A stretch of 64,000 bases of DNA from Flectonema sp. DT1601 (lineage: Eukaryota), in the NCBI GenBank assembly GCA_964019425.1, contig OZ025787.1, positions 682,001-746,000 on the forward strand. Reading direction: 5' to 3'. The notes beneath the pieces are model-generated. The model was not told the DNA's origin. It worked only from the letters and a program-made list of their open reading frames with translations, and did no database searches. Of the stretch, positions 1,620-64,000 are shown piece after piece. Within the stretch, counting starts at the first letter, position 1, and each line of letters begins with the position of its first letter. The translations under genes were made by a program, and so were the position numbers.

Positions 1620-4600
1620 CTAATCCACAGGGACAGGGGAAAAGTTCGATTGTCGTCCCGACGCGCAACTTGGTGACAACGGTGGAGACCAATCGTGGAT
1701 TTCGGAAGTAGAAGGGATGCTAACTCGGGAAACAGAGGAGGGGTGGGCCCCTCGAGACCCACAACTTGGAGATATCGGTGGTGACCAATCATGAACACCA
1801 GTTGTCGGAGTGACACTACATTGGGGAGGTGTGGATGAGTTGTCGGATCGTAGAGTGTGTATTTGATCACGCAAAGCGAAGCATTCCGTTGAGGGTAAGA
1901 ATTGACCAAAGTGGGAAGTAATTGGTGAAAGTGGTGGAGAGTAAGGGGTGAGCGGATTAGACAGCAGGACACTGTTTTCCCCAAATTGAGAACTCACACA
2001 AACGAGAGGACTATTAACCTCAACCAACAATGGGTTCGGTTCTAATGTTTCACCATAGCAAACTGGCCACCACTCCCCCAGCTCGTCCTGGGTAAAATTG
2101 CGACGCTGCGTTGAGTGCGTCTTGTGAGCTTTGTCGCAAAGGGCCTGGAGAATAGCAAAACGATTTTTAGCGTGTTTGGCATCCCTACAGTACTCTGACC
2201 AGTAACCGTACAAAGCCGTAGAATCTAAGAGTCTATTAGTTAATCTTTTATTTCGATAATTTCGTTGATTGATATCAACAGCCAACCAATTCTGCCTTCG
2301 TCCCATGTCACGAATTTCTCTCCTGACATCTGTCCTACTTTGCAAACAGTCAGGTTTCTTCTCATTCCATTTTAATATTGCGTAGTCGCGTATTTCTTGA
2401 CAACTCATGTTGCCGTCACCGTCTTTGTCCACAACCGCATAGATTTCCTTCAGGACCTCTCTGACTATGTTTATCACAAATGTGAGCAACACGATGACAT
2501 TTATTGCTAATATAAAATATGTCAGCAGATCTTCCTCCATCTTACTTAAGTCAGCAAAGTAAAACAATCCTAAATTAAGAGTCGTCATAATACAAACAAG
2601 AGAGAGGCTCTCCAACTTCCAAAGAACAACAAACTTAAAAGGACGTAGAAGCACATTCAGAGATAAGAAGAACGCTATTGTCCACATGGCAGCCCACATC
2701 TGGTATTCAGCATTTCTAGCGAGGAAAACGACTATGAATACAATAAGCATTTTCCTTATCATAATAATCATCTCCCAGTACCACCTCTTTAATCTGTATC
2801 CAGAGTATAAAAACCCTAACGTTGACATAACTTCTTTCGTACAAAGGGCATCTAAATTCCGATACAACAATGCAAGTCCCGCCAATGGTAGTCCAAATCC
2901 GTACAGGAAGAAGAAGAAGAATGATAACGTGCGGTACGTCTTGTATTTCGACTCTTCACAATCAATACTTGGATCTTCCTCAAGAAAGCGATGGCAGCGT
3001 TCCAGATCAACACAAACAGCGTCTGTGCATGTCAGCATCATGGCTAATTCTTTCATCAGGGAGGGATATATCAAGAAAATTATAACTAAAACAGTTACGG
3101 TATACACATCCATCGAACGTAAACCAACCGTCCCGCCTTCTTCTGCAAGCGGTGATAGCTTCGCGCGGGGCTTAAGTCGGATGTGGTTTGCTGCTTCGCC
3201 ATGCGAGTGAATCCCCTTATCACAAGCCTCACAGTAAAACTTATCGTGGTGAGCACAGTACCAGACAGCAAAGTCTTTGTTACAAAGATCGCACATCTCA
3301 GTTACGATTAAGTGCTTGTCTTGGTTTATGAGACGTTTCATTCGCTTTTTATCAGCCTCAAGGCGGGTCTGTAAATCCTCTTCAGTTTCGTGACTCTGTC
3401 CGATGAATGATCCCATCCCGGACTGATATCGAAGAGAGTCGTCTCTTAGTGGAATTGGAGTCTGACTTGGCACAGATGATGGTACTTGTGATCTCGTCTC
3501 TTGACTCGTTGCTGTTTCTGACATAACTGTTAAGCGAAGTTGGATTTCACTGTCTGTGAATCCCATTTGTTTCCACTTCAAGTACTTATCAGCTATCCTT
3601 CTCATTCTTGAAGCGGCGTATAATTGTTCGTATGAAAGGGTTCGAGCGAGAGTCTCAATTCCGTAAGCTGCTGTTATCCCATCAGCTGATGGCAGCGCCA
3701 CCATCTTTGGTCTCGCTCTACCAAATTCACCTCTGACGTAGTTAGAAAAGAACTCCGCAAACATCCATCTGGGAATGTCATTTGAAGGTGACAGAATATC
3801 AGAAGACTGCCTACCTTGATAAGGAGTAATATGAACCAACTCTGGTGCACGCGTAGGTGACCTGGGGGGTGTCAACGGAGCTGTACTGGTATTCCAGATT
3901 TTTATAGTTCTGCTAACTGCATCTATCTTCTCAATTGTCCAGACTCCGTCAGTTTTTACAGCTTTCAAGTAATCACTTGTTCTCCCAGAAAAGGATTGCT
4001 GCATTGACATGGTGCTGTGTTCCGCCAGAGCCTTTTCCCGCTTTACTGAGATGCTCAGATTAAGTGACGGATCGTACACGTCGCCTGTTGAATCAAAAAA
4101 GACTTCCCAGACGATGCCATGATCAGAACGCTCTACAAAATCTGAATCTCGAAAGTCAAAATGTTCGTGGTGCTTGACGGGGTACGGCGGGTAAACCGCA
4201 CAAGCAAGACGAGTTAAGTAAGAACCTCTCCCATCCATCGTTTCACCATCGTGTTCCTCAAGGATATCTTCGATAACTTCATCTTCCTCCATGTTATCAA
4301 TTTCGTATGTGATGATGTCTTTCTGTTGAGTGGCAGCGGATTCCCCCCGCTTTTTTTCTTTGTCCCTACTCGCTGGTAAGAAGCAATCGTGGAGTAGGAC
4401 ATCCAAGTCTTCTCTTGTTGGAAGGATTCCCCTATCTGTGTACGGTAATTTTATTGCTGTGAGTAGTTTGAATCTGGCAATGCAAGCCTCCAGTAATTCG
4501 TCTCTGAATAGAGCAAGAATTCTGTTATTGTTCAGCTCATGCTCAGGATGGTCACAAGTGATCCACTGGTTCATAACTAATTCTTGCAACTGGTCTTGCA

Positions 4601-5072
4601 CTCCAACACAACCAACTCCGGGAGTTGGGAAGAGTTGTTCGAGTATACAGCAGTGTTCACATAACCAGCAGCCGTGCTTGCCCAGTGTAAAACGAGCCTC
4701 AAATCGAGGTTCTCCAAACTCATCTCTTGCTTCTATTCGATAAGGTGAGTACTCTGTTTTAACAGTTGAATCTGGTTCACTCAAATCGGCCAGCGTCTTG
4801 AAAACGTTGTCTTTTGGGCTGGCTAATTCCCTCATTTGGATTGCTATTGTTTTTTCTCCATGTGAAAGTGAACTGTGCTCGTACAGTACAGCCCTCAAAT
4901 CCTTTCTGTCTCGTTCATTAACACACCAATCGTACATCCAGTGATAAGGTGACTGACACTCACATGCTGCTTCTTCAAATTCTTCTTTCATATCAACTTT
5001 TATCGATGCCTGAGTCAGTAGCTTCTTTAGAGCGAGGATCACACCTGGTACTACTATCACACAAACTGGAGC
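1620..5072 (-). CDS. Exon E (terminal): TM3, ~640-aa loop with B-box, six further TM helices, EF-hand, Ser/Pro-rich tail
   Basis: The 1146-aa ORF extended by 4 codons to the acceptor. Motifs YPSL..C...DPSIDC, YGFGLP, GFLYSGY...YWE...RK, Q, PF, ESLSL resemble protist multi-pass 'GPCR-related'/TRP C-terminal-like (PF06011-like) proteins. Confidence 0.88.
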   Translation of the reverse strand, partial: APVCVIVVPGVILALKKLLTQASIKVDMKEEFEEAACECQSPYHWMYDWCVNERDRKDLRAVLYEHSSLSHGEKTIAIQMRELASPKDNVFKTLADLSEPDSTVKTEYSPYRIEARDEFGEPRFEARFTLGKHGCWLCEHCCILEQLFPTPGVGCVGVQDQLQELVMNQWITCDHPEHELNNNRILALFRDELLEACIARFKLLTAIKLPYTDRGILPTREDLDVLLHDCFLPASRDKEKKRGESAATQQKDIITYEIDNMEEDEVIEDILEEHDGETMDGRGSYLTRLACAVYPPYPVKHHEHFDFRDSDFVERSDHGIVWEVFFDSTGDVYDPSLNLSISVKREKALAEHSTMSMQQSFSGRTSDYLKAVKTDGVWTIEKIDAVSRTIKIWNTSTAPLTPPRSPTRAPELVHITPYQGRQSSDILSPSNDIPRWMFAEFFSNYVRGEFGRARPKMVALPSADGITAAYGIETLARTLSYEQLYAASRMRRIADKYLKWKQMGFTDSEIQLRLTVMSETATSQETRSQVPSSVPSQTPIPLRDDSLRYQSGMGSFIGQSHETEEDLQTRLEADKKRMKRLINQDKHLIVTEMCDLCNKDFAVWYCAHHDKFYCEACDKGIHSHGEAANHIRLKPRAKLSPLAEEGGTVGLRSMDVYTVTVLVIIFLIYPSLMKELAMMLTCTDAVCVDLERCHRFLEEDPSIDCEESKYKTYRTLSFFFFFLYGFGLPLAGLALLYRNLDALCTKEVMSTLGFLYSGYRLKRWYWEMIIMIRKMLIVFIVVFLARNAEYQMWAAMWTIAFFLSLNVLLRPFKFVVLWKLESLSLVCIMTTLNLGLFYFADLSKMEEDLLTYFILAINVIVLLTFVINIVREVLKEIYAVVDKDGDGNMSCQEIRDYAILKWNEKKPDCLQSRTDVRREIRDMGRRQNWLAVDINQRNYRNKRLTNRLLDSTALYGYWSEYCRDAKHAKNRFAILQALCDKAHKTHSTQRRNFTQDELGEWWPVCYGETLEPNPLLVEVNSPLVCVSSQFGENSVLLSNPLTPYSPPLSPITSHFGQFLPSTECFALRDQIHTLRSDNSSTPPQCSVTPTTGVHDWSPPISPSCGSRGAHPSSVSRVSIPSTSEIHDWSPPLSPSCASGRQSNFSPVPVD

Positions 5073-8000
5073 CTGTTGGAATTTATTTGAACATGCGTCA
5101 GCATAAATGAAAAAAGAAATCCCCTAATTCTTGCAAAAGGTAAGCGAGGAGGATAGGCAGCCTGGTAAAAATAGAACTCACATACCAGCATCCACGCATT
5201 GAACTTGTTGTAGTGATCCAGATTGTCGACTACACATTGAAGAGAAACAACTTTTGAAGTTGGCCCCGTTTTTATTTCCCCATCAAGGAATGATTGCATC
5301 GCTTCTCCCCAACGTACACTGAAGTCACCAGCGAGTGCACTAACATGAAGATGGTTCATAAACATTTTAATCATCACAGATGCGACAGGTGTTTCCTTCA
5401 CAGTCGAACCAAAATTAATATTCACCGCCACTAGAATGAGGACAATGATAATCAGTGCCAAGCATATGATTGCGATCATTATATAATTTGTCAAAACGGG
5501 ATAACATGCAACACATTCATCACCATTCTTTCCATAACCGTCTGGTGCAATGAGAGTACTTTCACGAGAACACAGAGAACAAAATGGTCCAGTGTGTCCT
5601 TCATTGCATTGTGTTTCAGATCTGATAGAGTCAGGGATGTTGATATCACCGAGTGGTGCAGCTTGACAACCAGCTTCACACTCGTGTGATTTGTATGTCA
5701 CTGGTTCCCTCCAATAACCTGCCTTGTTTACTAATATTGTCCCTCCATTACATTGTAACCCTGCTTCACACTCACCACACTGAGTCAAACAGAAGTAAGG
5801 ATCTGCAGAGGAGACGCCCACCAACGCCTGGCCACCTACAGGGTTTCTAGGCCCGAATAATACTTCGCCTAATAGGTGATTCCAGCAACCGTATTCAAAT
5901 GAATAAGCAAACTGGTTACAACCTGCTTCTATTGAAGTTGAAGTACAGCAATTCTTTGGAATGACTGTCGTGGACACAGAGGATGCCGCATTGATGGCTA
6001 ATTGAGACGACAAGTAGTCAGCACTTTGAGTATCTGCTGAGAACGATAACTTACACGACATTCCGTTCCAAACTTTAAATCTCCTTAACGTGAATCGAAT
6101 TAGAGTTGAGGAGCCACTCTCAAATGTGCTGTGTGACATAAAGCCAACCTCAGTCTGAGAGAGTACATAACTGCATGCCATATTTTCTAACTCCAATCTT
6201 CGATTTACGTCTTCCCAGTTTTCACCCCTCCTTGCGTAAAGAGCCGGCGATGTTTTCGGGTCACGTAGTTCTTTCACTTCTTTATCTAGCCTTACGTAGA
6301 ATGTCACACCTGACTCCGCCTCTACTTCACTTCCCTTGAGAACATTTCCAGCAAAGTCAAGAACCTGCACTATGTACTCAATAGTCTCAGAAAGATAATT
6401 TGTGACATCAGTTTTCGGCTCTGCCGCCCATCCCAAGTGGTGGGCTGATCCAACTGTCACATGAAACCTGTTTGTTAGTTTGTTTTGCTGAACTTGTAAA
6501 CTACTTCTCTCTTTGTTAAGTAGAAACATACTGTTGAATATGACGATATCCAAAAGCTGATCCAACTGCACACTTCCACGAATCGACGTATGGTAGCTGT
6601 TTATTGGCAAAGTTTAAAGTTGCGGAAAAAGTAATTCAACCGAAATAGTAAGAAGCAAACAAATAACATACTCCTCCGTAAAACGAATCGAGGCCAACGC
6701 AATTGTCGCGATTGGTGCAGGGACCAGCACATGACGGAAGCAAATCGAGAGAAGTTGAGATGTCGATTACTTGAATACCGTAGTCTCTAGCTCTAGGAGC
6801 ATGCAGGTAGAAAGTAATGTTGGCAGTACCATTGTGAATCATTGCTGAATCACCATCGGGGAATTCAACGCATTCGTTGGTAACATTCAGGCAGTTGTGA
6901 TGTTGTAGAATGAGAGGGCCATCCCAGTGGTTGCTGTCGGTAGTACTTCCTTCGATAAAAATCTTCACTCTTCTGTCTGTTTCAATATATCTGTTTAACA
7001 AATCATTTCCAACAACGTCTTTAATAGTAATTATAACAACAACAGGACCAACCCTCACATCAGATCTTAACGTTGAAGGAATTCGAGCAGTGCTGCCGGT
7101 AATTCCGAGCTGCGCAGCCTTCCCAACCTGACTTGGTCCTAAGACTGGTTCAACTTCACCAAGACCAGCGTTGCAGTTATTCGAGCTGAGGCAGTTTGAT
7201 GCCACAGCCACCGTAGTTGTTGCAGCGCTGCTCAGTACACCCTGGACACTGGCACTACCGGTGTTCTGCAAAACTTCAACCTGCCGTGCAGCTGCCCCCG
7301 TGCACGGTGACGAGTCCAGTCTTTTTCCACTATCACAGCAGCTTCTTCGATCCGCCAGATTATAACTTGGGAACAAGTTCTCGCACATATATTGACAAGT
7401 TGGTAAGATTGTACTAACAGAACAGGGGTCTCTGAGGACAGCGGGTACTTCACATGAAGTAGAACTACCGTTAACGTAAAAATTGTAACCGATACGGAGG
7501 CGTTCATCCGAGTACCCACTCAAAGCAAATGTCAGATAGTCGCCATAAATAATGAGATGCTTACCATAGGCAGTAGTCCCTTCGTTCTGTCCGAACGAAG
7601 GCGGATCGAATTCACAAATCTTACTACCAACACAGCCAGAAACACATCTGGAAGTCTCAATTGGGTTAGGCAGCGATAATGGAGCAATGTTGTAGTCGTA
7701 TCGATCAAGGGCAGTGCCGTAGAATTCGAATGTCACATCATACGACTCACCGAACTGCGCCCAAATGGACATCTGAGAACCCGTCGTACTGCTCTCTCCG
7801 TAGGTTGCAATACCAAAAGCGTTGAATTTAGGATCGTACCTTTGGCGTAATATCTTTGCCTGTGGTGACACATCTAACAGCCCTGGTGTATTCCACAAAC
7901 AGAAATTAACGCCGTCCTCTAATAGCGAACTGAACTGTTGACTGCTGCTACTTTGGACACCCCACATACCACTATCTCCCAAACGAGGGCATCCTGTCGC

Positions 8001-11000
8001 CAACTGCGCGCAATTTGCGACGTCTCTGATGCATCTTGGCCATGGGGATATAGACTTAATTCTAACGTATATGTCATGATTACTAGTAAAGTCACTCACA
8101 GGATTATCACTAATATCTAACATTATGAAAGAAGGCTGAGTCGTCAACGGTTCTTCCCTTGTCAGAGTTCGTGTAGGGATGCTTCCACGGAATCGAACCT
8201 TATTAGGAAGTCCCTCAATAATTTTAATGGTCACCTCAGCCGGCTTGATAGCAGAACCAACAGGAACGATTCGAAGGTTGTAGCGCCCAGCTGTTGGATA
8301 TTTCATTCTGATGATGGGATAGGTTCCAATATTGCTGTAGAATGTGAGGATTTGAGCCTGACGAGCAGTACTACCTCCGACTTCTAACAGGGGTGATATT
8401 CTCTCATTTTTAATGGAAGCGAGTTTAATGCTTGTTGAATTCAAGACGACTTCTACTCTGACTGTGGTACTGCTCGGGTTGATCTTTTCGAAACTGTTCT
8501 CATTTTGTAGTAGCGTTTCGTAGTCGGCTACCCACGCTCCTCTCCATCCGTAGACACCCGTACTTTCATCAACTAAAGCTACCCGAAGAGAAAAGTCTTT
8601 ATCTTCAGGATTTAATACTTCGAGCTTCCTGACAATGTCTGAGTGTTTCCATTCCTTCTCAACATCAGTCCAGAATTTCCCTCCTGCGAGTGTGACCCAC
8701 TCTGAGCTTCGCAATAGCGATCCCTCATTCAGAACTGACCTGGCAAGATGTAGTACAGAATAGTTAAAAACTTCATGTCGAGTCTGATCATGGAGGTAGT
8801 CATTAGAAGTTAGTCTCCTGATACCGAGAGCTTCTTTAGAATCTAATTCAACAAGTTGAGCTCTGTAGGTTTCTTCAGAAAGAGCTTTGGTGTAAGGTGA
8901 AAATTCTTTTCGATGAGGAGGTAGAAAAACTTCAGTATTCCACATGCGTATTTGAGTTGGGGGTCCGACGTAGCGGTGGTAGTAATCAATTTTAACAAGA
9001 GATTCGTTGAATGCCTGAACACCTTCTAGTTCTCGACAGTTCGCGTTATCTGAAGCATCTCCTCCAGAAGTGAAACATCTCAATGCTGGTGACACCAAAT
9101 TCATCTGAGGCCGACTGCGAACTTCTGCAGGAGGAAGATCGCATTCCAAAGTGCAACTGTCAATGAATGCCGCCTTCACCATTGAAACCAGGGATCGATC
9201 TTCACGGTTTTCCGTTGCCTTGCGAAACACGCAATAATATTGTCCAATAGGTTTATTAGTGTCGGAAACATTATAGAATTCCCATCCCTTTATTGTTAAA
9301 GGAACTGATGTTGTAGCAGGTTGTTCTTCAGGTTCAATCCAAGACAGTCTTCTAGAACCAACATAACTGTAACTACAGTCAGATATTGTCATTCGATGTT
9401 TTTTAGTCATTAATGAGATTGGTTCAGATCCTCGTGTTTGAACTGTAAATATCAGCCAGAAGAACATCTTCTGTAATGTATAAGGAGTGGTACTTCTATC
9501 AACCTTGTACTGCAAACCTCTACCACCTCCTCCTGAAGTGGAGGTGATAGTCAGGCGATCAAACTGATGAAGGATGAGGCTGCTGAGTACTGACGTTCCA
9601 AACTCTAACACCAGCTGATATTTTAAAAAGTGAATCTCACTATCAGTGTTTATTTCTGCTGTGACGTAGTACTGTTCATCATCATCTTCAATAGTGTTTC
9701 CTGCCCTGTCCATCAACTTGAATACTGGTTGTGTTCTGAGAGGGTTCCTGTTGTCACTGTAAGTCGAAGGTCTTGTTGCAAACTCCAGCGAAAATGGATC
9801 ACCTCCCGAAACATGAACGTGAATGGAGTCGACGAGTTGTTTAAATGAGAACGTCAGAGAGTAAACACCTTCCTTGGGAGTTTCAAAAGGGATAAATGAA
9901 TACGTGGCAGTACCGTTTTCAATAACAGCAGGTTCTATCGATCGCGGAGTGAAGCGGATGTTGCTGTCAATTCGCTCCCAAAGCCCAGTTACGTATGGTG
10001 ACGGGTCTGCTGGCCAAATATCACCCAAGACATTGTTGCGGATGTCTCGCAAGGTGAGATCGACACGGGGGAGGTGTTCACCAGAGCGGATTTTAACGAG
10101 TTTCCCACCATCACGACATTCTGTGCGTCTTTTGCCACAGATGACGAGAGCTTGCAATGACTTTGCAGGACCGACAGAGTTATAAGTTGTCACAGTACCA
10201 ACGATGTCGGAATATATCTGACCGTCCATTGTCAACTCAACTGTGGAAGTGAAAGGAACATCATGCGCCGGTTGTAAGCAGAGAGCCTTCATCGCTGTTA
10301 AGAACGTACCGTGAGATTCCACACCGTTAATACGACACCTCATAGTACTCGTTTTTAGAAAACCTGACCCTGACACTGTAATAACTACGTCAGAGAATGA
10401 TGGTCCATAACACCCTCCAGTTTCCCTCCGAACAATTATCGCCTCATTGTGATCACCCTTCTCGTAGAATGTTTCTGGTCCAGCTATAGACACCGTATCG
10501 GATATGGACTTCGACTTCCTGTCGAAGTGAGTGATGATGTGGTCCGTCGGATATTCCCCTTCCTCAACATGTGGGAATACCCAACTTCCAAATGTTGTTT
10601 TTGCTCCCAGATGAAGTATTGTTGGTGTTGATATGAAGCTCGCTTCGAGTCCTGATTCTGTCCAGCGGCCACGGTCATCAGCAGAAAGCTCTATTTTCAG
10701 TGATTGACAAGGGATGTATGTTACTGGTTCTCCTGTTGTACAGGCTACTGTTGTTAGAACTCCAGTTGATAGATATGTGCATGTAGTTGATTGTGTTTCC
10801 CCAATGATCATGATTGGCTTTGAGTTACTCTTATCAGGGAATCCGTAACCAGTAAGCTCCACTACTGTTCTTGCTTTCTGAGCATCCACAAATGTTGGTG
10901 TAACAGAAACAATATCGTACATATTCGCTACGAGTATTGCTACTCCATACTCTTCATTACTCACAGCAATGAATGCTGCTCTTCTGAACTGGTCAACTTC

Positions 11001-14000
11001 AATGCCGACGCAGATGCAATTTCTGGTCGTCTTGTCTTCTGACAGAACTCTAGTTGAAAGGGTTTCAAACTTAGAGATTGTGAGTAATATCAGAACAGAT
11101 CCCGTGGATTTTGTTCCGATCGAGAGATAGAGATTTCCCAAGGACTCATCAACACCGACTGCAGTAACTGTTGTTGTGAGGTGTGAGCCTTTAATTCGTT
11201 TCCAAGAATTGGTGGTAGTCAACTGTTTCTTTAGCTGAGAGCTGTCGAGTCTGTAGACGATGTAATGCTCAGGGTGTAAGATGGATGACAAGATTCTAAT
11301 AAAAAGTATTAAACCATATATTGAATCAGGTGAGCGAATCATCTTCTCAACTTTAACACATTGAACCTCACCAGAGTCACAGATACCGAGTGGCATTTCA
11401 AGTACAATACGATAGGAAGCTTCTACTCGTGTGGGTAAAAAAGTTTTTTGAATAATAAATTCCTTTAAGTGATTCACTCCCACGATAGCAAGAAAAGGAG
11501 CGCTGAGGTCATCATGAACATAAACGGTGTCAATAACAGATGTCAGCGCATTGAAGCTGATTAACTCTTTTTCTAAGCGATCCACATAAAAGCTCCCATC
11601 GTGACTAAGTACAACTTGCCTAACGTGGTATGCTGCAGGTGTACCCTGCCTGCTAGACAAGACCAGGAAGGTGAATTTTTGAAGATTCTCAGAAAAGACC
11701 CACTTGGCTATCGACACAGATACACCAATCTGATTGAATTCCAAGATATCCAACCTGACAACACAGGGGACTGGATAATAATATTCTGGTCTTACAGCAA
11801 CTGTACCATCTGAACATAATGAGCAATCTATGTATGTATTATGAGCTTCACACACCGAGCTGTTTACAAAGCGAACACAGTTCCAAGAAGCGTGCAGGCG
11901 AGAGACAACTACCCCTCGTTCCCCTTTAATAGAGATTATCTCAGTACCTGGTGGGCATTCAATAGCGACACCTCCCTCGTCTGATTGTTTATCACAAGTG
12001 AGTAGTTTATTAAATGGGTAGTCAGGGAAACCGTTGTTTTTTGGAGTCAACTCCATATCCGCAGAGGCGATACTACGAGCAACATATGGTATGCTACCGT
12101 TGACGATATAATAAATATACTTCCCAGAGTGAATTATTCCAACTACTTCACTTCCAAACACCTCCTCATTACGAGTTCGTGCGTGCACTGACCACCTACT
12201 CACATAGTGTGAATCTCTCCACGCCACAGAACTATCGAATGTCTTAGACCACATGTGAATTGGGATCTCAATACTGTCAGCATGTGATACACTAGTACTG
12301 GATAACAATATCTCTCGTTCATCAGCGCTGGGATGTGGTTCGTGGAGAGAACCCGATGTGAGCCGGAAAGCGCTTTCCACAACCCAAAGAAGGGCGCCAC
12401 CATCTCCTTCTCTTGCAGACTCCAACAGTGGTGGACGGGGTGGACTTGCCGAGAATGGGATTGAAATCTTTCGTTCAGTTACTGTTTGTGAGAAGAGACA
12501 ATTTCCATCATTTAAAACATAACCCTCAGAGCATCGATCACACTGAGAACCAGCCCAACCAATATCACACTGACAACTACCCGAGTCATCACAAACACCA
12601 TTTTGATAACAACGGCACTCGTCGATACAGTTGGGGCCCCAATACCTTCGATCACAAGTAGAACAGTTTGTAGAGGAGTCCCAGTAGCCATTAGTTCTGT
12701 CTTGATAACAAAAACATGGAAAACTACTTACAAATAGTAAACACGTACCATGAGAATTACAGAGAACTTCGGCATCACACTCAACACAAACGTCAGAAGC
12801 AGATGCATACGAACCTGCTCCACAAACGCAGTCCTGATTTAAGCAAATACCCCGCCGTTTAACAACACAGTCATGAAAACAATCCAACAGGCATGTGTCT
12901 CCGTAGAAACCATCTTTGCAAATATCACAATTTACACCTGCCCAGTTACTATAACAAGTGTCTGCTATGCAATTTCCACTTTCCCGATCACACGTTCCAT
13001 GCCTACAGCTGCAGTCATCAATGCAACTTGGACCAGACTTTCCCCGATAGCACACGTCACAGTTTTCTCCTGCCCAGTATCCACTCTTATCGAAGTTACA
13101 TTGGCAGTAACCATCCTCTGTACACTTCGCATTTCCCGTGCAAGAACATTCACGCTCGCAGAAGAGGCCAAAAAAGCCTTCAGGACATGCACATTTCTCA
13201 ACCGTATTGTCAACTGTTAAATCATTAGTGCAATGTCCCCTGTTGCAAATGTCGTTTGTACATTCCGTAAGTTTGTATGTCTGACAGTTAGTGTTGGTGG
13301 AAGTGAATCTGGCATCGCATTCGTTGCAAAACTTCCCTCTCCAATATCCCAACTCACTGTTTCCGGCACAGGAACCGTACTTTTGCTGATCACTAAATCT
13401 CCCAAAAGGAAACACCGTTGGAGTTAATTTGTATTCTGAAGTTGAGAAGCCGAGGATCCTAACAATAGTAAAGGCGCTGTTTAGCGGAGTAATGAGTCGA
13501 ACATGTTCACTCCTTTCAGAGCTAACAGATACCCAAGCAGCTTGCAACTGAATCTTATTAGCAGCTTCAGGAGAGAACTTTATTGTACTATACAACTGAG
13601 TGGCAGACAGCTGATAACTATCTTCGAGGGGTTTTATTGAACGCTCCGAAGAAAATATTTCTCCTGAGGTCTGAGCTGCCAAATTGCTAATGGGGCGGGT
13701 GTCTGCAGTCTTTGTCATCCTGATGGTGAGTCTTGGAGTATAATTATTGTTACCGACAGTCCTGGAGCCAGCATCTCCCACTCCGAGTCGCCTGCACCCA
13801 GACAGTTTAGAGCATTTTTCTTTCCATTCAGGAGAATACTCGCGTGGATAGAGTAATGTCATACAGCTGGGGGCAGCTTGCATCGGGATCGCAACCTCTC
13901 GCAGCGCGAGTGTTACTGTGAGTGCTTTGCTGCCTGCTATAGATGTAAAGAAACTAGTTACATCTAATATACGTTTGTTCCCAGAAACACTTGGAGTGTT

Positions 14001-53000: not shown

Positions 53001-56000
53001 ATTTCCGCGATATCCGGAACCGGATTCCACATCGTCAAATGTCGCAGCCAACCTCCCGAGAGGAACAACCGCCGTGCCGTCGAAAGAGTAACTGAGATCA
53101 TCGACATAAAACGTATCCCCGGAAGGGGTGATCACAATCGTATCAAACGGACTCCCGTTCACAAACGAGTCGCAGAACATCCCCTCGCCGCACGGAATGC
53201 TGGCCCGAGTGGTGACACTCTCAACCACGATGTCCTTCAACTTCGTCACAACCTCATAAGAGCCCTCACTGCCAGCAGAAACGTCCATCTTGAAGTCCGT
53301 CACAGCATACCCACTAAAGAATATGTGCACCCCACCGGCTCCAGGGGGAATAACGAGGGAAGGCGACGCCGCGTAGCTCGACGAGCTGATTTCTCTCGAA
53401 CCCGACAGCGTCAAGTGACTACCAGCCACATGCTGAGGTACCTCCCCAACCCCGTCGCTGTAGCTGTTGAAATCCTCAGAAACCAAACCGACAGGAATCA
53501 GATCGCTTCCGTCGTACGAAAACACGACAGAAGTCACCCAAATGTGTTCATCAGCATCGGGGATGCTGGGCGTGGTCAGGGAAACGAAGTCTACGTCAGT
53601 CTCAGTGACAAACTCGTAGCAGTAGAACGACTCCGCAGCCGAACAACGGTTTGCGATGGAAGGGGAAGCAGTCTCCACAACAACACCCTTGTTCCTCAGT
53701 GTTACCGATATTGTGCGCAACGGAGCCCCTCCCTGCTCCAGCGACGCAAACTGAATGCGAATTCCCCTCGTGGAACGAAAGGAGAACGAGATGCCAACCT
53801 CCGCATCAGACGGGAGTTCCCAGCCTCTGCGAGTCACAACAGCACCGCTCGCCACATCGAACAGCGCATAGCAATCAGATACAACGCTGGATACTCCGAT
53901 CGCTCCAATTGAATTTACCATGTACTTCAGATTATCAAATGTGGTGTGGTCAAAGTCTGATTCGAAAGGCAGTGTCAATCTCCCCTGCGGGATCACAATC
54001 GAGCCGTCGAACGAGTAAAACACGTCGTCGACGAAAATCGTCCCGACAGTCGGGACAGTGAGAATCAGCTTGTCGAACCCTGAACCCACCCAAGTGTGCG
54101 CGTACTTCGAATTCAAACCTGATTCGAACAGGGTGATTGTTTCCGAAAGTAGAACAGAGTCCTTCCGCATTCCCTCAATCGCAACCACGATATCCGTGTC
54201 CGACCAGATCGTTACGCGAAAGTTTGAAACCGGCATGAAATCAAACGACATTTCCTTCCGCGTGAAAGGCTCGATCTTCCAAGACTGAGTGTTCAATCCA
54301 GTGTCACTTCCGATAACTTCCGTATGATCGCCAAGACGGTTGATGTACTGCCCGACAAAGTCTGTCGACTCGAACGTCGTGCCGTCTACCAAGTCAAAAT
54401 TGAGCATCTTCACACCATCGGTCAGTTCCATGCCCCCCTCATCAAATGAGAACCAGATCGTATTGAGGTGCATGTTACCAGTTTCTTCGTTAGCACCAGT
54501 GATGCGAACCTTGTCAGCTGTACCCACCACGAAGGTGGAGCAATACCAAGAACCTTCGCCAGTCACGCAAGGTACATCAATTGTTGGAGTAATTACTTCA
54601 GTTGATGATTGAAGAAAAGTTCGTAGTCGAATCTGAGTTATAAATGGAACTGAAACAGTCACGCGGAAATGCTGAATTACTAAAGAAAGAGAAAAGTCAT
54701 CGATTGGAAGCCCAAATTCCAATTGAAAACCCGTCATGATTGATGACTCCCACTCATTAAAAAGATCGCCGTTGGATACGATCCTCGTCGGACCGATTGC
54801 GTGCACAAAGTGGCTCTCGCTGAACTGCGTACTCGTGAATGAACTCAATCCGTTGAAATCCAATTTATATGGATTGTCAGTGGGGTTCACAGAAGTACCG
54901 TCGAACGTGAAGACGACATCGTCAATGTAGATCTCGTCTCCGGAGGATACCGTGACAGCATCGGCACCGGTCCCAGTCAACTCGACACAGTAGACGTCAG
55001 TTGCGGTCCCAGCATTGCACGCACAACAAGCTTCATTGGCAGTATAAACATTTCTATAATATTGACCATCAGATTCACATATTCCAGGTTCACTATATGA
55101 ATTACAGTTTTCACCACGGATATCTTCCCATTGGTTTCCAGAAGCAAATTTTAAGTCTGAGCAAGTGACAGAAGGAGGCTTGATAACAGAACTACCTCCA
55201 CAAATAAAAGCATCTGCTTCAGTAACATTTCCTATTGCGATAAGAGTTCCATCGTTTTCAATCTCATAGGTGGCGACAAATGAAGCAGAAAAAGATATGA
55301 TGTAAAGTCTAAATGACATTGGCATGAACATGGTTTGAAAATAAAATGAACTTCCAGAAGTAACAACGACAGAATCAGAATTGTCCCATGAGTAGCCTGA
55401 GAGAGTAGAACCCCAATAATATATAAATTGTGGTTGGTAGGCTGAAGATGATTCAATTCTCGTAAAAGACGCAAACTGCCTCCCAACAAGAACTGCAGAT
55501 CCTCCATCAAAGGTGTAAAATATATCACCAATATGTAGATCTCCCTTATTAGAAAGAATTTCTATTTCGTCAAAAACATCGTCAGCAGATGAGACGTACG
55601 TGTCACACACAAAACCATTGCATGGAATGGCAGCAGTAAAGGTTCGTTGTTGTTTTTGTCGTTTTTTATATTTATTGAAAATTGTGTATTGACAATTATC
55701 TAAAGACGCACAGGATACCGTTAGACGAAGAGAGGTCACTAAGAAACTTCTAAATGATAAAACTGATGATTGTCCCTCAGAAATAGAAAGAGAGCTGCGA
55801 GAGTTGTAGTCTTCAGTAATATCACGAGAACCCGACACTAACACGTGAGAGTCATGAATAGCAGTGTTGGGAATTGTATTAGGTCCCAGTTCGTAGTCTT
55901 TAAAATCAATAGTGTACAACCCTAACGGGATAATATTTGAACCGTCAAAGGAGAATGATATATCAATAATCATTATTGATGAATCAGTTGTTACGATTTC

Positions 56001-59000: not shown

Positions 59001-62000
59001 GGGATTTTGTTCTTCACTCCAAATTGTGATTCGGAAGTTGGTAACTGACAGCCAACTAAATGAGATTGTTTCATTTCTTATTTTCCACATCACCGTTCCA
59101 ATAGTCGGGTGAACTTCTAAGGAATCTCTCGCTCCCAGTTTGCTGATAAAATAATTATCGCTGTAAACATTTGGAGGAAATGGACTTTCGAGATCTTCAA
59201 AATTCACATGAAATGTACCCACGGTAGATCCAACATCAACTGACTTAAAACTATAACTGAGATCATCTAAATAAAAGTAATCCACGTCACCAGATATTCT
59301 GGTGATCGAAATCTGTTCAACGTTTTTGATTGAAATCCTTGCGCAATATCTATCACTGAACTTAAGCACATCACAAACAGAGGATGTTGCTAATTGCTGT
59401 TCTGGATATGTGCTGGCCCCTATCTGTCCAGATAAACTTAACTGCAAAGGAACTGAAGATGAAATGATTGCGGTCACATATCTGGCAGCCATTAGGACGT
59501 TTTTTCCACTTGCAACTTGACCAAACTTAATCGAAAATCCCACACTGGAATTCCAAGCCACTGATCCATGATAACCTTCTCCCGTGTCCTGAGGACCTTC
59601 TCCTAACTGAAGGATAAAGTTGTCACTGAAGGCATCGGAGTCAAATGTTTTTCCTCCAAAATCGTTGAAATCGATAAAATATCTTTCTGAAGGGTTCACT
59701 GAACTACCATCAAAAGAATAAATAAAATTATCAATCGATAAATGCTTCTGAGGTGACTGCTGAATTATGAACAACTCCTGCACACTTTCACTAACAGAGA
59801 TATCAATACAGTAAACTGTTCGAGTAGTACCTCCATTGCAAGAACAACAAGCTTCAGAAGCTGTGAATGAGTTGCGATACTCATCAGAGTTTCGAACCAA
59901 ACAAAGTTCTGAGTTGTACATATCACAGTTCATTCCAACGGAGTCTACCCAGGTTGTGTTATCGTTGTTTGTTAAATCTGAACATTCAATTAAAGTATTC
60001 TTTACAACAGAACTCCATCCACACTCATAACTATCTTCTGATGATGAATACACTCTTGGTGTCATCGTGGAATGATCATCTGCTGAGATATTAACAAAGA
60101 AAGGAATCTCAGGACTGGACACAACAAATTGCATTGCAGTAATAGGAATGAAGATCATCTTTATATCACCATCCACTGTCGAGTCAATTCCAACTGACTT
60201 CGTATTATCAAACGAGTAGTTTGATAAGTATGGAATCCAATTAAAAACTATTCCATTCTCAAAGTTGGGATTTTTTTCATCGAAATCCAATTCAAGTTTT
60301 CCAGTCGGAACTACCTCAGTAATAAAGTCAAAGCTGTACACCAAATTACTAACGACTGCCGTCCCATTTGGCGACGATATTATTATTTTATCTATTCCGT
60401 GATTCAATTCCTTATGTGAGAATGCATAAGTGTGACAGCGCATTGAAGCCGCTTTTGAACACCAAACTGTAGGCGTTATTGATGAATTAGCGTGCGGGTA
60501 ATCTTTAAAATATGAAAAAACAGTAAAACTTGTTCCCGTCGTTGACACAGTAAACCGAATAGAAGAAACAGTGTAATCATTAAATGTAATAATAGTCCTA
60601 CTTCCTGTTGATATGTGTAATCCAAGTGAATCATCGTAAGTAGCGGCTATGGATCTTGATTCGGTAAATTGAATAGTGTTCTTATTAATTAATGTGTTTG
60701 GTAAGATACCCTCCACGTGATGTTCGTTAAAATCAAATGAAAACAACCCAACTGGAACAATATCACTGCCAGTGTAAGAGAACCAAACACCCGTCACAAA
60801 AACCTTTGATGTCGTAGTGATTCGCAGCATGGTCACTCCAGGAATTCCACTCACTAGTAGTTCACCACAATAATGTGATGAAAAACATGCTGTAACAACT
60901 GGTACTACTACAGAGTAAGTCGCATAATGAACTGTGACACTCGCACCTCCCTCTGTTGAGGACAGGGCTATCTTAAATCCAGTGATGTCAATAAAATTAA
61001 ATGAAATTACATTCAGATTAGAATCACTCAACTGCCAACCCTTATCAGTTGGGGTAGCTTGTTGAACAGTTCCACCTGTTAATAAGAATTCTTCTAATTC
61101 ACCGATGATGTTAATGGCAAAGTTTTCATAGAAGATTCCGCTACTAAACAAACCTACTTCATTAAACTTGATATGAAGTAGTCCAACAGGAAGGACATCT
61201 GATCCATCAAACGAATAATGAAAATTACTAACGTACACAAGGACTTCAGGGGAGATTCTAATAGCGTCAAACAGATATCCATTCGCTTGTAGAGTGTAAG
61301 CATAGTTAGGTCCGTCAAATACATCGTTATCCTATTTAAGTAGTTGCGTTTTCTTTTTTTTTTTTTTTTTTTTTTGTAACTGAACAATGTAAGAAATAAA
61401 ACCATACCCGCTCAATAAGATTCACTGTGACGCTGTACACTTCGATAGTTCCTTGCATCATAGAAAAGGAAACAGCAACAGCTGCATCTGCCCAAAGGGT
61501 TATTCGAAAATTAGAAACCATCATATAACAAAAGGATATCACTGTAGGTGATTGGACTGACCACACGCCTCCCTTGTTTCCTTGGTTACTAACCATTTCA
61601 GATTCAGAACCGATGCTACATAAATAATTATGAAAGAAGTCAAACTGTTGGTCTCCTAATCGTGAGATGGCGAATTCAACTGACAGATGACCATCAGGAA
61701 GAACAAGTGAATCATCAAATGAATAAGACACGTCATGAACGTAAACCGATCCTATTCCGTTAGTATGAAATCCAACAGATTCAACTGCATCAGAAATAAT
61801 AATCGTCGCACACTCACCACCTTCAGGATGATCAATAGAACAGAGTGCTCGAAATGATATCAAATCATTAAAGGTTTTGGTATTTGGACGTGATTGAATC
61901 CATTTCCCTAAATATAATGCAGCCACTGATAAGCTTCTTACAGTTAACCTAACTCTTCTTGCAATCCACGGTACTTGAATATAGAAAGAAGCATCCTTGA

Positions 62001-64000
62001 CTGATATACCAAAGTTTATAACACCACTTTGTGTTACCCAAGCATTAGTTCCATCTGCTGCTATTCCGAGTTCGAATGATGAATCAAAGAGAACATACGA
62101 GTCTACGAGAGATGAATAGACTAAGGAGGAAGGCATTCCTTTGAATCTTAAAAAAACTGCATCCACTGGAGGACCATTTTGTGGAATAAAATTATACACC
62201 ATATTATCAACGTAGATGATATCATTTGATGTTATTCTTATCTCAGGTAATGATTTAGATAAGACAGTTATCGAAACACAGTAGACGTTTGGACTACTTC
62301 CTGCTCCGCAATCACAACAGGCTTCAGTTGCGATGTACGTTTTTCGATTAGATTCTTCTAATCCTTCAATAAAACATTGATTATTATCTAAATAGTAATA
62401 ACAATCATCACCGTGAATATCCTTCCAAGGTTCGTCTCCATCTCTTAAGTCAGAACATGGAACGTATTTGGGTTTCGTAACAATGAAACCTCCGCAGACG
62501 AATGAATCTGTTTCCGTATATAAATTAGATTCAAATTCGAAAGAGAATGATTTATTGAATGAGAAGACAACAAACGATAAATCAGAAATATATCCATATT
62601 TTGGAAGTATTAAAACATCAGTACCTTCAGTAGAAAAACTATACTCATCCACGGCGTATGAAAACGGCGCGACCGTTCCCATCTTTTTGACGATGTTTTG
62701 TTCGTCAAAAACAGTCGACGGATTGAATTCTAAGAATTGACGATAAGCGACAATTGGATTACTTCCATCAAATGAGAAAGTAATTTCTTCAACAAACCAC
62801 GGCCCACCAACAGCTTTAATTGTGAAACTTGTAATCTCATTTGGGTTATCAACACTCAAGTATGAAACTCCTTCTCCGATATTTGATTCGCAATCTGATG
62901 ATGACCACGATTGTTGAGATATTACTTTACCGCGGAAAAGTGTAGTCAAATCAAAAGTAGAAAACGGACTGACAGTTGTGGCGTAGAATCTCAGGTTACT
63001 TACAGGTGCACTAATCGGACCAAAAGTAAACTGAACAGTCTCACCGTCAGCTATCAACAACGAAAGGGTTCCCGTTGCTTCAGATGCTTCAATCCTACAG
63101 CTACTGACGAAGATCTTCCCACCATCAACAGGCTCTTCAACATTAGAACCCGATGCGAGTTCTTGCCCTTCTTCGTAAGAAGTAAAAACAACAGTTTGAA
63201 GACCCGAAGGTCTTAAAACTGTATCATCAAAGGTATAGTACATCTCACTGAGCACAACTGTTTCTGTTGACTCCAATGTAAAGTAAGTAATTCCAACGGA
63301 TATGTAAAGTTCTGCACAATAAAAGCCTCCAGAACTTCCACAAGTACTAAGAAGATCTATTTGGTGGACTACTGTTTCAGAATCATCACTGTAAGCAGTT
63401 AGTGTCACAAAGGACTCAACTGTGCTCACTAGAACGATGAAAAGCTCTTTGATGGAAATAAAATTAAACGACACCCCTGAAACTATTGTTGGAGGCAATT
63501 CCCAACCAAATAAATTATCGAAAACAGCAACAACATTCTGAGGAACTCCAACTTTACCAACAGAGAATATCATGTGACTGTTATAAAAGTCTTTTGGATC
63601 AAAGCTACCCACTTCAGTAAATAATAATCGTTGAATTCCATTAGAAACTACCGAGGGAACGGTAAACGAGTATTTCAAACTATCAACAAATACAGTACCT
63701 GACTCCACAGACATTGTTAACCAGGTGATGTCATCAGTTAGATATGCGTAGTAAAACAAGTTGGGGGCCCACTTGGCTTGATGAAGAACAAAGTTTTCAT
63801 TATTCACTATAACTGTTGCTGGTGATGTGCTTGTGAAGATTACTCGCAGATTCAGTACAGTCAGATATGAAAAGCAGATGTCGTACTCTTCCTCACCTCC
63901 GAGTTTCCACTTACCATCTAAAATAACCCCACCTGATGAGGCTATTGCAAACTGATTAATGTAGTCGGAGTTGAAATTATTTGGAGGCGGGCCGTCAGGC
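1620..64000 (-). CDS. Giant multi-exon gene, 5'-truncated: join(complement 63999-61408, 61331-6672, 6596-6532, 6467-5186, 5072-1620); at least 20,683 aa; multi-pass membrane protein with a huge repetitive Cys-rich ectodomain
   Basis: Four same-strand ORFs are joined in frame by four GTATG...AG introns. The frame stays open from 63999 (PDGPPPNNFNSDY...) with no stop, so the start codon is outside the window. Codon count is 864+18220+449+1150, plus the TAG stop at 1622-1620. The domain pattern continues across the junctions. Confidence 0.92.
1663..1795 (-). repeat. Duplicated tail motif HDWSPP(I/L)SPSC
   Basis: Two copies visible at both DNA and protein level, plus a third partial YSPPLSP near 1922-1945. 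Confidence 0.85.
2394..2429 (-). other. Canonical EF-hand loop
   Basis: DKDGDGNMSCQE has D1, D3, D5, G6 and E12, and is flanked by helical segments just after the last TM helix. Confidence 0.8.
3178..3293 (-). other. B-box-type zinc finger
   Basis: CDLCNKDFAVWYCAHHDKFYCEACDKGIHSHGEAANHIR fits Cx2Cx8Cx7Cx2Cx4Hx7H. Confidence 0.85.
5073..5185 (-). other. Intron 4, 113 nt, phase 0, GT-AG
   Basis: CTG|GTATGT...GCTGAC...TTCCAACAG|GCT. Splicing gives FNAWML-APVCVIVVPGVILAL, a complete TM helix. Confidence 0.9.
5186..6467 (-). CDS. Exon D: last Ig-like module, juxtamembrane Cys-rich domain, TM1-TM2
   Basis: CGECEAGLQCNG...GYWR...CNEGHTGPFCSLC...GY...CVAC followed by hydrophobic YIMIAIICLALIIIVLILVAV. 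Confidence 0.9.
6468..6531 (-). other. Intron 3, 64 nt, phase 2, GT-AG with CTAAC branch-point motif
   Basis: CA|GTATGT...AAACTAACAAACAG|GTTTCAT. The spliced CA+G forms Gln, followed in frame by FHVTVGSAHHLGW. Confidence 0.88.
6532..6596 (-). CDS. Exon C: 65-nt mini-exon (LPYVDSWKCAVGSAFGYRHIQ + CA)
   Basis: Bounded by AACAG and GTATGT. It restores the frame between exon B and exon D. Confidence 0.85.
6597..6671 (-). other. Intron 2, 75 nt, phase 0, GT-AG
   Basis: GGA|GTATGT...CAATAAACAG|CTA. It is AT-rich and contains the TGA that ends the long ORF. Confidence 0.88.
6672..61331 (-). CDS. Exon B: 54,660-nt uninterrupted coding exon (18,220 codons)
   Basis: The 18,200-aa ORF in the track, extended to the acceptor at 61331 and trimmed at the donor at 6671. 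There is no stop in frame. Confidence 0.9.
6780..10925 (-). other. Alternating IPT/TIG-like and bacterial-Ig-like domains (membrane-proximal stalk)
   Basis: IVSVTPT...VELTGYGF; VITVSGSGF...CRIN...CLQP...VELTMDGQ; LSWIEP...LTIKGWEF...TLECDLP; GDPFSLEFATRP...TQPVFKLMDRAGN; GLPNKVRF...TQPSFIMLDISDN. Confidence 0.65.
12500..13400 (-). other. Laminin-type EGF repeat cluster (others at about 14390-14560, 17620-18310, 20190-20560)
   Basis: Repeated CxxxGxC...CxC...GYWxGxxCxxC motifs. Confidence 0.8.
25460..25760 (-). other. PAN/Apple-like domain (a second candidate lies at about 22600-22890)
   Basis: ECLDYCQMDGGCVAFEV...CTIY matches the CxxxCxxxxxCxxFxx...C pattern. Confidence 0.65.
25925..26250 (-). 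other. Two Cys-rich CDDxxxxTxNDxCxxGxCxG repeats
   Basis: CDDSSISTANDRCLSGECIG and CDDQNSATKNDRCLFGLCVG. Confidence 0.75.
26271..26725 (-). other. Four ephrin-receptor-like (GCC2/GCC3-type) Cys-rich repeats
   Basis: CxxCPxGTxS pattern: CESCPEGTFS, CTTCPPGEIS, CTPCPSGTTS, CVNCLSHQTS. Confidence 0.7.
27198..27830 (-). other. Four calcium-binding-EGF-like repeats
   Basis: DEC...C...QxCxD...GD(W/F)xCxC repeated, for example DECVTFSNICQEQLCSDSNTAVTNLGDWYCVCPEGFTG. Confidence 0.75.
37692..54463. repeat. Near-perfect coding tandem array, period 2454 bp (818 aa), about 6.8 copies
   Basis: Identical ORF translations in several frames recur every 2454 bp (37817, 40271, 42725, 45179, 47633, 50087, 52541). 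Identity starts at about 37692 and breaks at 54464. Confidence 0.98.
37850..38012 (-). other. Six-Cys module CxDx(6-8)WxDxxGxxCxxYx(4-5)C...RNxFxAxEACCxCxxG (example copy; 12 in window)
   Basis: Copies near 62300-62460, 59830-59990, 57440-57585, 55010-55165, seven in the array, and 33005-33160. Confidence 0.9.
61332..61407 (-). other. Intron 1, 76 nt, phase 0, GT-AG, contains A22 on the sense strand
   Basis: CGG|GTATGG...CTTAAATAG|GAT. Splicing removes the in-frame TAA and gives ...NLIER-DNDVFDGPNYAYTLQANGYLFDAIRISPEVLVYVSNFHYSFDG, which completes a repeat domain. Confidence 0.92.
61408..64000 (-). CDS. Exon A (partial): diverged super-repeat unit with beta-sandwich domains and a Cys module
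   Basis: Open frame 63999-61408 ends ...VNLIER just before the GTATGG donor. It carries the same xxVDDxxYSFD and EACCxC motifs as the main exon. Confidence 0.9.

Follow-up and report, generated by a model that had tools for sequence, protein, structure and literature searches.

A putative giant multi-pass surface protein gene of Flectonema sp. DT1601 related to a euglenozoan nine-pass protein family

Introduction

Polycystin-1 and ADGRV1 carry a long repeated ectodomain on a multi-pass domain of 11 and 7 transmembrane (TM) helices, respectively, together with GAIN/GPS elements, and have been proposed to act in mechanosensing. Drosophila Dumpy is an EGF-based, single-pass matrix protein with a ZP domain. 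Pkd2 of S. pombe is described as a protein of ~710 residues with nine predicted TM helices and a 147-residue extracellular lipid-binding domain (10.1101/2022.08.11.503631), and is reported to pass calcium under membrane stretch in vesicles (PMC9727806); its Pfam family, PF06011, has served in a search for fungal TRP-like proteins, a Trp1322 homologue among those identified (PMC8618638). Proteins of tens of thousands of residues, with numerous TM segments and periodic folds resembling carbohydrate-binding modules (CBMs), are reported from Omnitrophota and have a proposed role in prey adhesion (10.1101/2023.11.21.568195). The subject of the present report is a putative gene on the minus strand of a 64,000-nucleotide stretch of Flectonema sp. 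DT1601 (assembly GCA_964019425.1, contig OZ025787.1, positions 682,001 to 746,000), hereafter called the window; all positions given below are those of the window. Its predicted product, a long repeated ectodomain on a nine-helix membrane domain, is best read as a giant, lineage-specific extension of an uncharacterised family of nine-pass receptors in Euglenozoa.

The preferred reading of its function is a glycan-gripping tether combined with Pkd2-like, calcium-linked signalling. A probability of roughly 0.45 is given to this mechanism as a whole; a role as surface tether, taken by itself, is considered probable.

Gene structure

Six-frame translation yielded four long open reading frames (ORFs) on the minus strand, at 61339-63999 (887 codons), 6639-61331 (18,231), 5060-6613 (518) and 1623-5123 (1,167). 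The first-pass annotation, which was made from the letters of the window, had joined them into one coding sequence of at least 20,683 residues. Splice signals and reading frame bear this out, with the addition of a fifth exon of 65 nt. In the resulting five-exon model, removal of four introns (76, 75, 64 and 113 nt) leaves a 62,052-nt frame of 20,683 residues, with a predicted mass of ~2.27 MDa, followed by a stop codon at 1620-1622. The frame is still open at the window edge, position 63,999, and the start codon and signal peptide would lie upstream of the window.

At the ORF boundaries every donor reads GTATG[GT] and every acceptor [CT]AG (four of four introns), and the donors match (G)/GTATG, described as the donor consensus in three diplonemids (PMC12621601). 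The window's minus strand contains only 19 copies of GTATG[GT], of which 14 lie within exon 2, so that its presence at all four boundaries is beyond chance expectation. With a GC content of 0.21-0.38 the introns are AT-rich; a YTRAY branch motif is present in two of the four. The chance of 12,300 codons outside the perfect tandem array described below remaining free of stops is ~1e-244, which excludes chance as the origin of the open frame. Skipping the 65-nt micro-exon with the same splice sites breaks the frame; against non-consensus single-intron options, protein alignment gives it no advantage (score 2,434 versus up to 2,443). The acceptor of intron 4 at 5073 gives a gap-free alignment to a relative, 27 points above an acceptor at 5124, and another relative (P0006) apparently reads into the last exon at the same point. 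The shorter intron 4 ending at 5124 was ruled out by protein alignment.

It is hardly credible that the ORFs belong to separate genes or were brought together by a chimeric assembly. Modules and stalk are encoded in one uninterrupted exon, introns 2-4 are spanned by two transcript-derived relatives, and the module that crosses intron 1 is of type 2, as expected from the order of the super-repeat (score 140), although intron 1 itself is spanned by no relative found. One single spliced gene is regarded as highly probable. A look-up of positions 1620-11000 returned no sequencing run, an outcome that has no bearing on expression.

Relatives and protein family

Relatives were sought among proteins of up to ~5,000 residues. 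With the membrane region as query, two were detected among 1,187 longer candidates and five among 3,880 candidates of similar length, one of the five being the window's own protein. The named relatives are from Papus ankaliazontas, Diplonema ambulator and D. papillatum, and a named kinetoplastid relative is more distant. Together with the presence of introns, this points to a diplonemid as the likely source of the gene. The Papus protein (P0003, EukProt, 5,132 residues) starts with a hydrophobic, signal-peptide-like N-terminus and is colinear with residues 15,112-20,430 in six segments (best E 6e-67), so that the stalk is homologous to it from residue 15,112 onward. The D. ambulator protein P0007, a Trinity-named record, aligns in one segment over residues 18,410-20,579 with 31% identity. 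Both are transcriptome-type records and both span introns 2-4. Homology shows that the last ~5,500 residues belong to a protein family of Euglenozoa whose transcripts run as one unit across these introns.

In the closer relatives the nine-helix membrane domain is retained, as are, in most of them, the B-box and the EF-hand. Membrane domain and B-box-like motif are found in all three of Papus EP00760_P007634, D. ambulator EP01059_P021623 and D. papillatum DIPPA_32898, the first two of which also have the stalk and the EF-hand. A profile search of 8,000 candidates retrieved 14 proteins; distant ones among them have Ephrin_rec_like/DUF7630 ectodomains or a weak TIR domain, which suggests a wider protist family of nine-pass proteins with swappable ends. 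A metagenome scan added six weak, distant loci.

In the distant nine-pass-like relatives P0023 and P0025, a weak TIR_2 match (seen in P0023) follows the membrane domain, or Ephrin_rec_like repeats precede it. Four further proteins (P0002, P0008, P0020 and P0021) constitute a paralogous subfamily with an interrupted B-box, and three of the four (P0002, P0020 and P0021) have a WW-like domain in the loop.

The repeat module of the ectodomain was searched separately. Its profile gave four matches among 1.84 billion representatives, of which three were strong (P0009, P0010 and P0011). P0009 is a D. ambulator transcript with 28 module stretches, P0010 contains 29 module stretches with Cys inserts every ~820 residues behind a hydrophobic N-terminus, and P0011 is a second record of the array in the window. 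Homology shows that D. ambulator transcribes arrays of this module. The match P0012 (E 1e-8), a repeat protein unlike the module, was treated as spurious.

P0010 is a 4,881-residue ORF on a 21-kb contig, with ~six super-repeats and a signal-like start; at its end the frame appears to read through an intron containing a run of A, and it can serve as a model for the missing N-terminus. The C-terminal 300 residues of P0013, inside the D. ambulator module array, include a segment that may be CUB-like, judging from a motif.

Repeat region of the ectodomain

An internal-repeat profile tiles residues 1-11,867 (reversed protein, at most 4.5 bits). Above 10 bits, 72 full modules are recognized, and two more lie below. 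Five module types follow one another in a super-repeat with a period of ~815 residues, in which every fifth module bears a Cys-rich insert of ~60 residues.

The insert (W-x-D-x-x-G-x-x-C ... EACC-x-C) is located at residues 525, 1325, 2121, 2932, 3742-8650 (the array) and 10264. It is present in P0010 and absent from the D. ambulator module array. Pfam gave no meaningful match for five of the inserts.

AlphaFold2 (AF2), run on a 36-module alignment, produced an all-beta model of one module with a predicted local distance difference test score (pLDDT) of 92.4. Among 48,161 chains the best structural match is 9q5u (Z 11.9, root-mean-square deviation (rmsd) 2.9, 132 residues aligned), followed by DUF4465, CBM8 and CBM22 domains tied near Z 10.5 (CBM8 7t7z: Z 10.6, rmsd 2.8, 120 aligned). 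Carbohydrate-binding modules, domains related to them and glycan-active enzyme domains prevail among the top matches, Foldseek agrees, and the predicted model has the beta-sandwich jelly-roll fold of carbohydrate-binding modules. With the modules as query, Pfam gave no match at cut-off to a named CBM family, and a sequence search of the PDB gave no match at E<=10. An acidic motif near the module end (18 of 45 distinct modules) and F[DENS] near the module start (34 of 45) presumably resemble the structural calcium site of such jelly-roll domains.

Modules that bind a protein or a small molecule, in a receptor or adhesin for cell-cell recognition, aggregation or vitamin B12 capture, are quite unlikely in view of the preponderance of carbohydrate-binding and glycan-active domains among the top matches. 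Such ligands would be in line with the tied DUF4465 matches (4jqr, Z 10.8, rmsd 2.8, 134 aligned; 9hmu with B12, Z 10.1, rmsd 2.9, 125 aligned), with gingipain adhesin and reelin lower in the list, and with the nearest named clusters in the Atlas, which are PEP-CTERM and DUF4465 proteins (<0.9). Nearest of all in the Atlas are small unnamed proteins (scores 0.91-0.93), bacterial where taxa are recorded; this is taken as a lead only.

The first-pass annotation had described ~19,400 disulfide-rich residues on one chain with a multi-pass domain. The huge ectodomain on such a chain stands, but its make-up, according to AF2 and the structure search, is mostly CBM-like jelly rolls, and richness in disulfides is not borne out. 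Cys residues number 12-26 per 1,000 residues in the first 12,000 residues, compared with 79-94 in residues 12,001-14,000 and 43-53 in residues 14,001-18,000. Exactly two Cys are present in 26 of the 45 distinct modules and none in six (six others have eight or nine), so that the region is lightly, not richly, disulfide-bonded.

The perfect tandem array inside this region (Table 1) has zero mismatches over a 14.3-kb shifted comparison and supplies 5,590 residues, a quarter of the protein length; with one unit kept, 15,911 residues are left. The G+C content at third codon positions (GC3) is 0.61 in the array unit versus 0.31 in the upstream and 0.33 in the downstream flank, with sharp edges, a jump that over-assembly cannot produce. 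These features fit a real multi-copy array that may be under GC-biased gene conversion. A second contig (406,208 bp; P0011, P0014 and P0015) is identical over residues 897-5,073 and continues with two further identical stretches, 830 and 464 residues long, the ends of which read as neighbouring frames of the array unit; it contains at least 3.4 contiguous copies of the unit, probably 4.3. For the closest repeat-copy neighbour, dN and dS (nonsynonymous and synonymous divergence) are 0.30 and 0.81 over 342 codons, the GC3 shift inflating dS; two of three sub-segments were also measurable, and three more distant comparisons were saturated. The upstream neighbour of the array at 54767-55034 is 98% identical to the array unit, as if partly converted.

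That the gene is real but has no membrane-anchored product of 20,683 residues, owing to an assembly-made copy number, cleavage or alternative splicing, is very unlikely. Such a shorter product would suit the absence of mismatches in the array, the disagreement of the second contig within it, and seven stretches in exon 2 (39-123 nt, AT-rich and in frame) that resemble introns. Yet even the collapsed array leaves most of the chain in place, the GC3 rise at its edges cannot be created by over-assembly, several contiguous copies recur on the second contig, the module order stays in phase across both edges, and no furin-type site (R-x-[KR]-R) occurs in the 19,434-residue ectodomain.

Stalk and membrane domain

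In the stalk, which joins the module region to the membrane domain, Cys-rich stretches are located at residues 11,900-14,100 and 16,900-17,200. A PDB sequence search with three stalk segments gave one EGF match in total, and NCBIfam, run on 37 segments, only one match, which was below cut-off.

The ~9-TM domain proposed earlier is confirmed at the level of prediction. Hydropathy reveals ~8 clear membrane segments from residue 19,435 onward. For the Papus relative, AF2 (18 sequences) modelled nine long helices at matching places, three followed by a long loop and then six. By these two lines there are nine predicted helices with the N-terminus outside and the C-terminus inside, as in the PF06011 family; with the N-terminus outside, the B-box loop and the EF-hand tail would be cytosolic. 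TM4-9 are the best-conserved part (40-66% identity among the eight closest other matches). The top Atlas cluster for the membrane domain is PF06011-bearing (42% of members, score 0.92), and PF06011 itself scores below cut-off in most relatives, with P0017 reaching 28.5. The Papus membrane model had no Foldseek match at E<=0.001, VIA returned only generic helical bundles (best Z 8.6), and a PDB search with the TM profile returned only weak EF-hand proteins (best E 0.25). By sequence, the membrane domain is a relative of PF06011 that does not qualify as a member.

The B-box and EF-hand named in the first-pass annotation are present as motifs, with Pfam scores below cut-off in both cases (21.7 versus 24.1 for PF00643 and 18.0 versus 25.4 for the EF-hand). 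The B-box has the C-x2-C ... C-x2-H ... C-x2-C ... H ... H pattern; its Cys pairs are kept in close relatives, and some relatives are without one ligand. The EF-hand loop DKDGDGNMSCQE fits the 12-residue pattern D1, D3, D5, G6 and E12. There is one hand only, and D-x-D-x-[DS]-G...E is found in seven of 14 aligned rows.

Two further observations concern the cytosolic parts. A second Cys/His cluster (C-x2-C-x2-CC ... C-x3-H) at ~4590-4690 on the minus strand, residues 19,668-19,712 of the loop, is kept in P0003, P0005, P0006 and P0007 and is a possible further zinc site. At the end of the C-terminal tail (~1640-1800, minus strand) there are two copies of a Ser/Pro-rich motif, HDWSPP-x-SPSC.

The nine-helix domain might merely anchor a structural tether or coat filament, with the B-box loop linked to the cytoskeleton and neither ion flux nor signalling. 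Giant repetitive extracellular proteins can bear tension, as reported for Dumpy (2.5 MDa; PMC6331135), and the PF06011 match is partial and below cut-off. This is nevertheless unlikely, as the conservation of TM4-9 exceeds the needs of an anchor, the EF-hand loop is kept in half of the aligned rows, and distant relatives have cytosolic domains of signalling type (WW in P0002, P0020 and P0021; weak TIR_2 in P0023).

Table 1. Predicted features of the giant gene in the window
Feature	Position	Strand	Basis or remark
Exon 1 within the window, residues 1-864, jelly-roll modules	61408-63999	-	open at window edge
Intron 1, 76 nt, GTATGG...TAG, GC 0.21, contains A run	61332-61407	-
Exon 2, 54,660 nt, 18,220 stop-free codons, residues 865-19,084	6672-61331	-
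Intron 2, 75 nt, GTATGT...CAG	6597-6671	-
Micro-exon, 65 nt	6532-6596	-	needed for frame with consensus donors
Intron 3, 64 nt, GTATGT...CTAAC...CAG	6468-6531	-
Exon 4: stalk end, Cys knot, predicted TM1 (~5417-5491), TM2 (~5315-5383), TM3 start	5186-6467	-
Intron 4, 113 nt, GTATGT...CTGAC...CAG, interrupts TM3	5073-5185	-
Last exon, residues 19,534-20,683 and stop: TM3 end, ~630-residue cytosolic loop, TM4-9, tail	1620-5072	-
~74 CBM-like beta-sandwich modules, 140-200 residues each, residues 1-11,867	28323-63999	-
Perfect tandem array, 2,454-bp (818-residue) unit, 6.83 copies as assembled, residues 3,154-8,744, 34 modules	37692-54463	-
Stalk, residues 11,868-~19,430, Cys-rich EGF/TNFR-like stretches, largely without domain match	5492-28322	-
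Laminin-type EGF cluster	12474-13373	-	Pfam
IPT/TIG domain, single, above cut-off	10206-10406	-	Pfam
Predicted TM4-TM9, PF06011 similarity over TM6-9	2457-3116	-	hydropathy, AF2 of relative, Pfam
B-box-like zinc finger in predicted cytosolic loop, residues 20,126-20,163	3183-3296	-	Pfam PF00643, E 2e-4
Single EF-hand directly after TM9, loop DKDGDGNMSCQE	2385-2453	-	motif; Pfam 18.0 < 25.4

Outside the giant gene, a 115-codon open frame is located on the same strand at the left window edge (6-350) and is possibly part of the next gene.

Proposed function

In the preferred mechanism, the protein would be secreted by means of a signal peptide encoded upstream of the window. The ~74 CBM-like modules would grip glycans (of a prey wall, a biofilm, a substrate or other cells) through multivalent, low-affinity contacts, at a rough estimate some hundreds of nanometres from the cell, and force or ligand would be passed down the EGF/IPT stalk. 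Calcium might then enter through the nine-helix domain or a partner, while the EF-hand could provide feedback and the B-box could recruit partners. Repeated duplication of the five-module unit would have lengthened the reach, with the perfect array as the latest round. Diplonemid membranes are described as enriched in carbohydrate-degrading enzymes (PMC12697944), and such a carbohydrate-digesting surface makes an algal or plant polysaccharide a plausible ligand.

Several findings weigh against this mechanism. Membrane/stalk relatives and module relatives were found, but no relative with both was seen among proteins of up to ~5,000 residues; the module and membrane pieces of D. ambulator are separate records, and the Papus protein is without the module. 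The jelly-roll fold is shared by non-glycan binders in the same structural list (DUF4465 B12 binders, gingipain adhesin, reelin), and the tested module has no Trp and six Tyr, so that the classic aromatic sugar platform is not evident. The PF06011 match (TRP-like, Pkd2/FLC) reaches 23.6 bits, below the cut-off of 28.5 (E 2.7e-5), and is limited to positions 273-401 of the 426-position model. In exon 4, Pfam found no N-terminal TRP_N (ML-like) domain before TM1, where a Cys knot is located. The Papus AF2 model has a mean pLDDT of 57.4 (TM4-9 ~75-85; TM1-3 ~45-70). The second contig has three apparent frameshifts or indels inside the array and nothing downstream of it; errors in sequencing or a broken allele may account for these frameshifts.

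A mechanosensor of >2 MDa with tether and sensor in one chain, in which a lectin-like filament, tuned in length by super-repeat expansion, gates a Pkd2-like calcium channel, is rather unlikely. If true, it would possibly be the longest eukaryotic multi-pass membrane protein, and would imply that protists have a family of nine-pass receptors in which ectodomains and cytosolic domains can be exchanged.

Significance

The protein had been called undescribed, and no description of it or of its family was found in the literature searched, although articles behind subscription and the supplementary files of the diplonemid genome and proteome papers may list it. The same literature gave no eukaryotic example in which a jelly-roll super-repeat and an EGF/IPT stalk are combined with a nine-pass Pkd2-like domain, a B-box and an EF-hand. 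Since giant multi-pass proteins have already been predicted in bacteria, the novelty is in the eukaryotic architecture. Diplonemids are abundant in the ocean, and little is known of how they find and hold food; CBM-like modules with a Pkd2-like membrane domain offer a testable candidate for attachment and sensing. The gene also probes the size limits of translocation into the endoplasmic reticulum and of an mRNA of >62 kb; in a survey of UniProt, signal peptides are described as rare in proteins of >20,000 residues (PMC11573180). It suggests that a protist branch of PF06011-like nine-pass proteins has been overlooked, and its repeat module was found in the records of only two other species. 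The searched collections appear to end near 5,000 residues, so that such giant genes escape standard searches.

Comparison with known systems

The fungal TRP-like/FLC proteins (PF06011: S. pombe Pkd2, Trp663 and Trp1322; A. nidulans TrpR) share with the giant protein the nine predicted TM helices, the orientation with N-terminus outside and C-terminus inside, and a partial PF06011 match. Compared with Pkd2, the giant protein differs in its ectodomain of >19,400 residues, the ~630-residue B-box loop between TM3 and TM4, the EF-hand after TM9 and a PF06011 score below cut-off. The complete 5,132-residue Papus protein lacks the jelly-roll array, and the giant gene adds ~15,000 residues or more to its N-terminal side.

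Polycystin-1 and ADGRV1 resemble the giant protein in that a multi-pass domain bears a long ectodomain of repeats, and are three to five times shorter; Pfam matched none of their domains here. The 11 TM helices of polycystin-1 contrast with the nine predicted here. With an E limit of 0.1, Pfam detected no PKD, REJ, GAIN/GPS, PLAT or PKD_channel domain in 36 windows of the stalk or in 18 segments that together represent the non-redundant protein. Adhesion G protein-coupled receptors are defined by 7TM plus GAIN/GPS; here there are nine helices and no Pfam match to 7tm_2 or GPS. By analogy, the giant protein may function as a tethered receptor in the manner of polycystin-1, while belonging neither to the polycystin-1 group nor to the adhesion G protein-coupled receptors.

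In Chlamydomonas, PKD2 is described as attached to extracellular mastigoneme polymers (MST1), and this pair would be a functional analogue of tether plus channel (PMC10846610). It differs in consisting of two proteins with a true TRPP channel, whereas the giant protein has tether and membrane domain in one chain. Dumpy is comparable as a 2.5-MDa extracellular protein reported to hold tension (PMC6331135). The giants of Omnitrophota are bacterial, reach up to 85,804 residues and are described with SecA-like and hydrolytic domains (10.1101/2023.11.21.568195); no homology between them and the giant protein was detected. PKZILLA-1 (45,212 residues) and titin are longer and, in the portion of the literature consulted, are not described as membrane receptors. 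The first-pass annotation had measured the protein against titin and the PKZILLA proteins; in size, the Omnitrophota giants and Dumpy are closer to it than titin. With TM segments and CBM-like folds combined in the bacterial giants and a similar mass in Dumpy, size with membrane attachment is not unique to the Flectonema protein.

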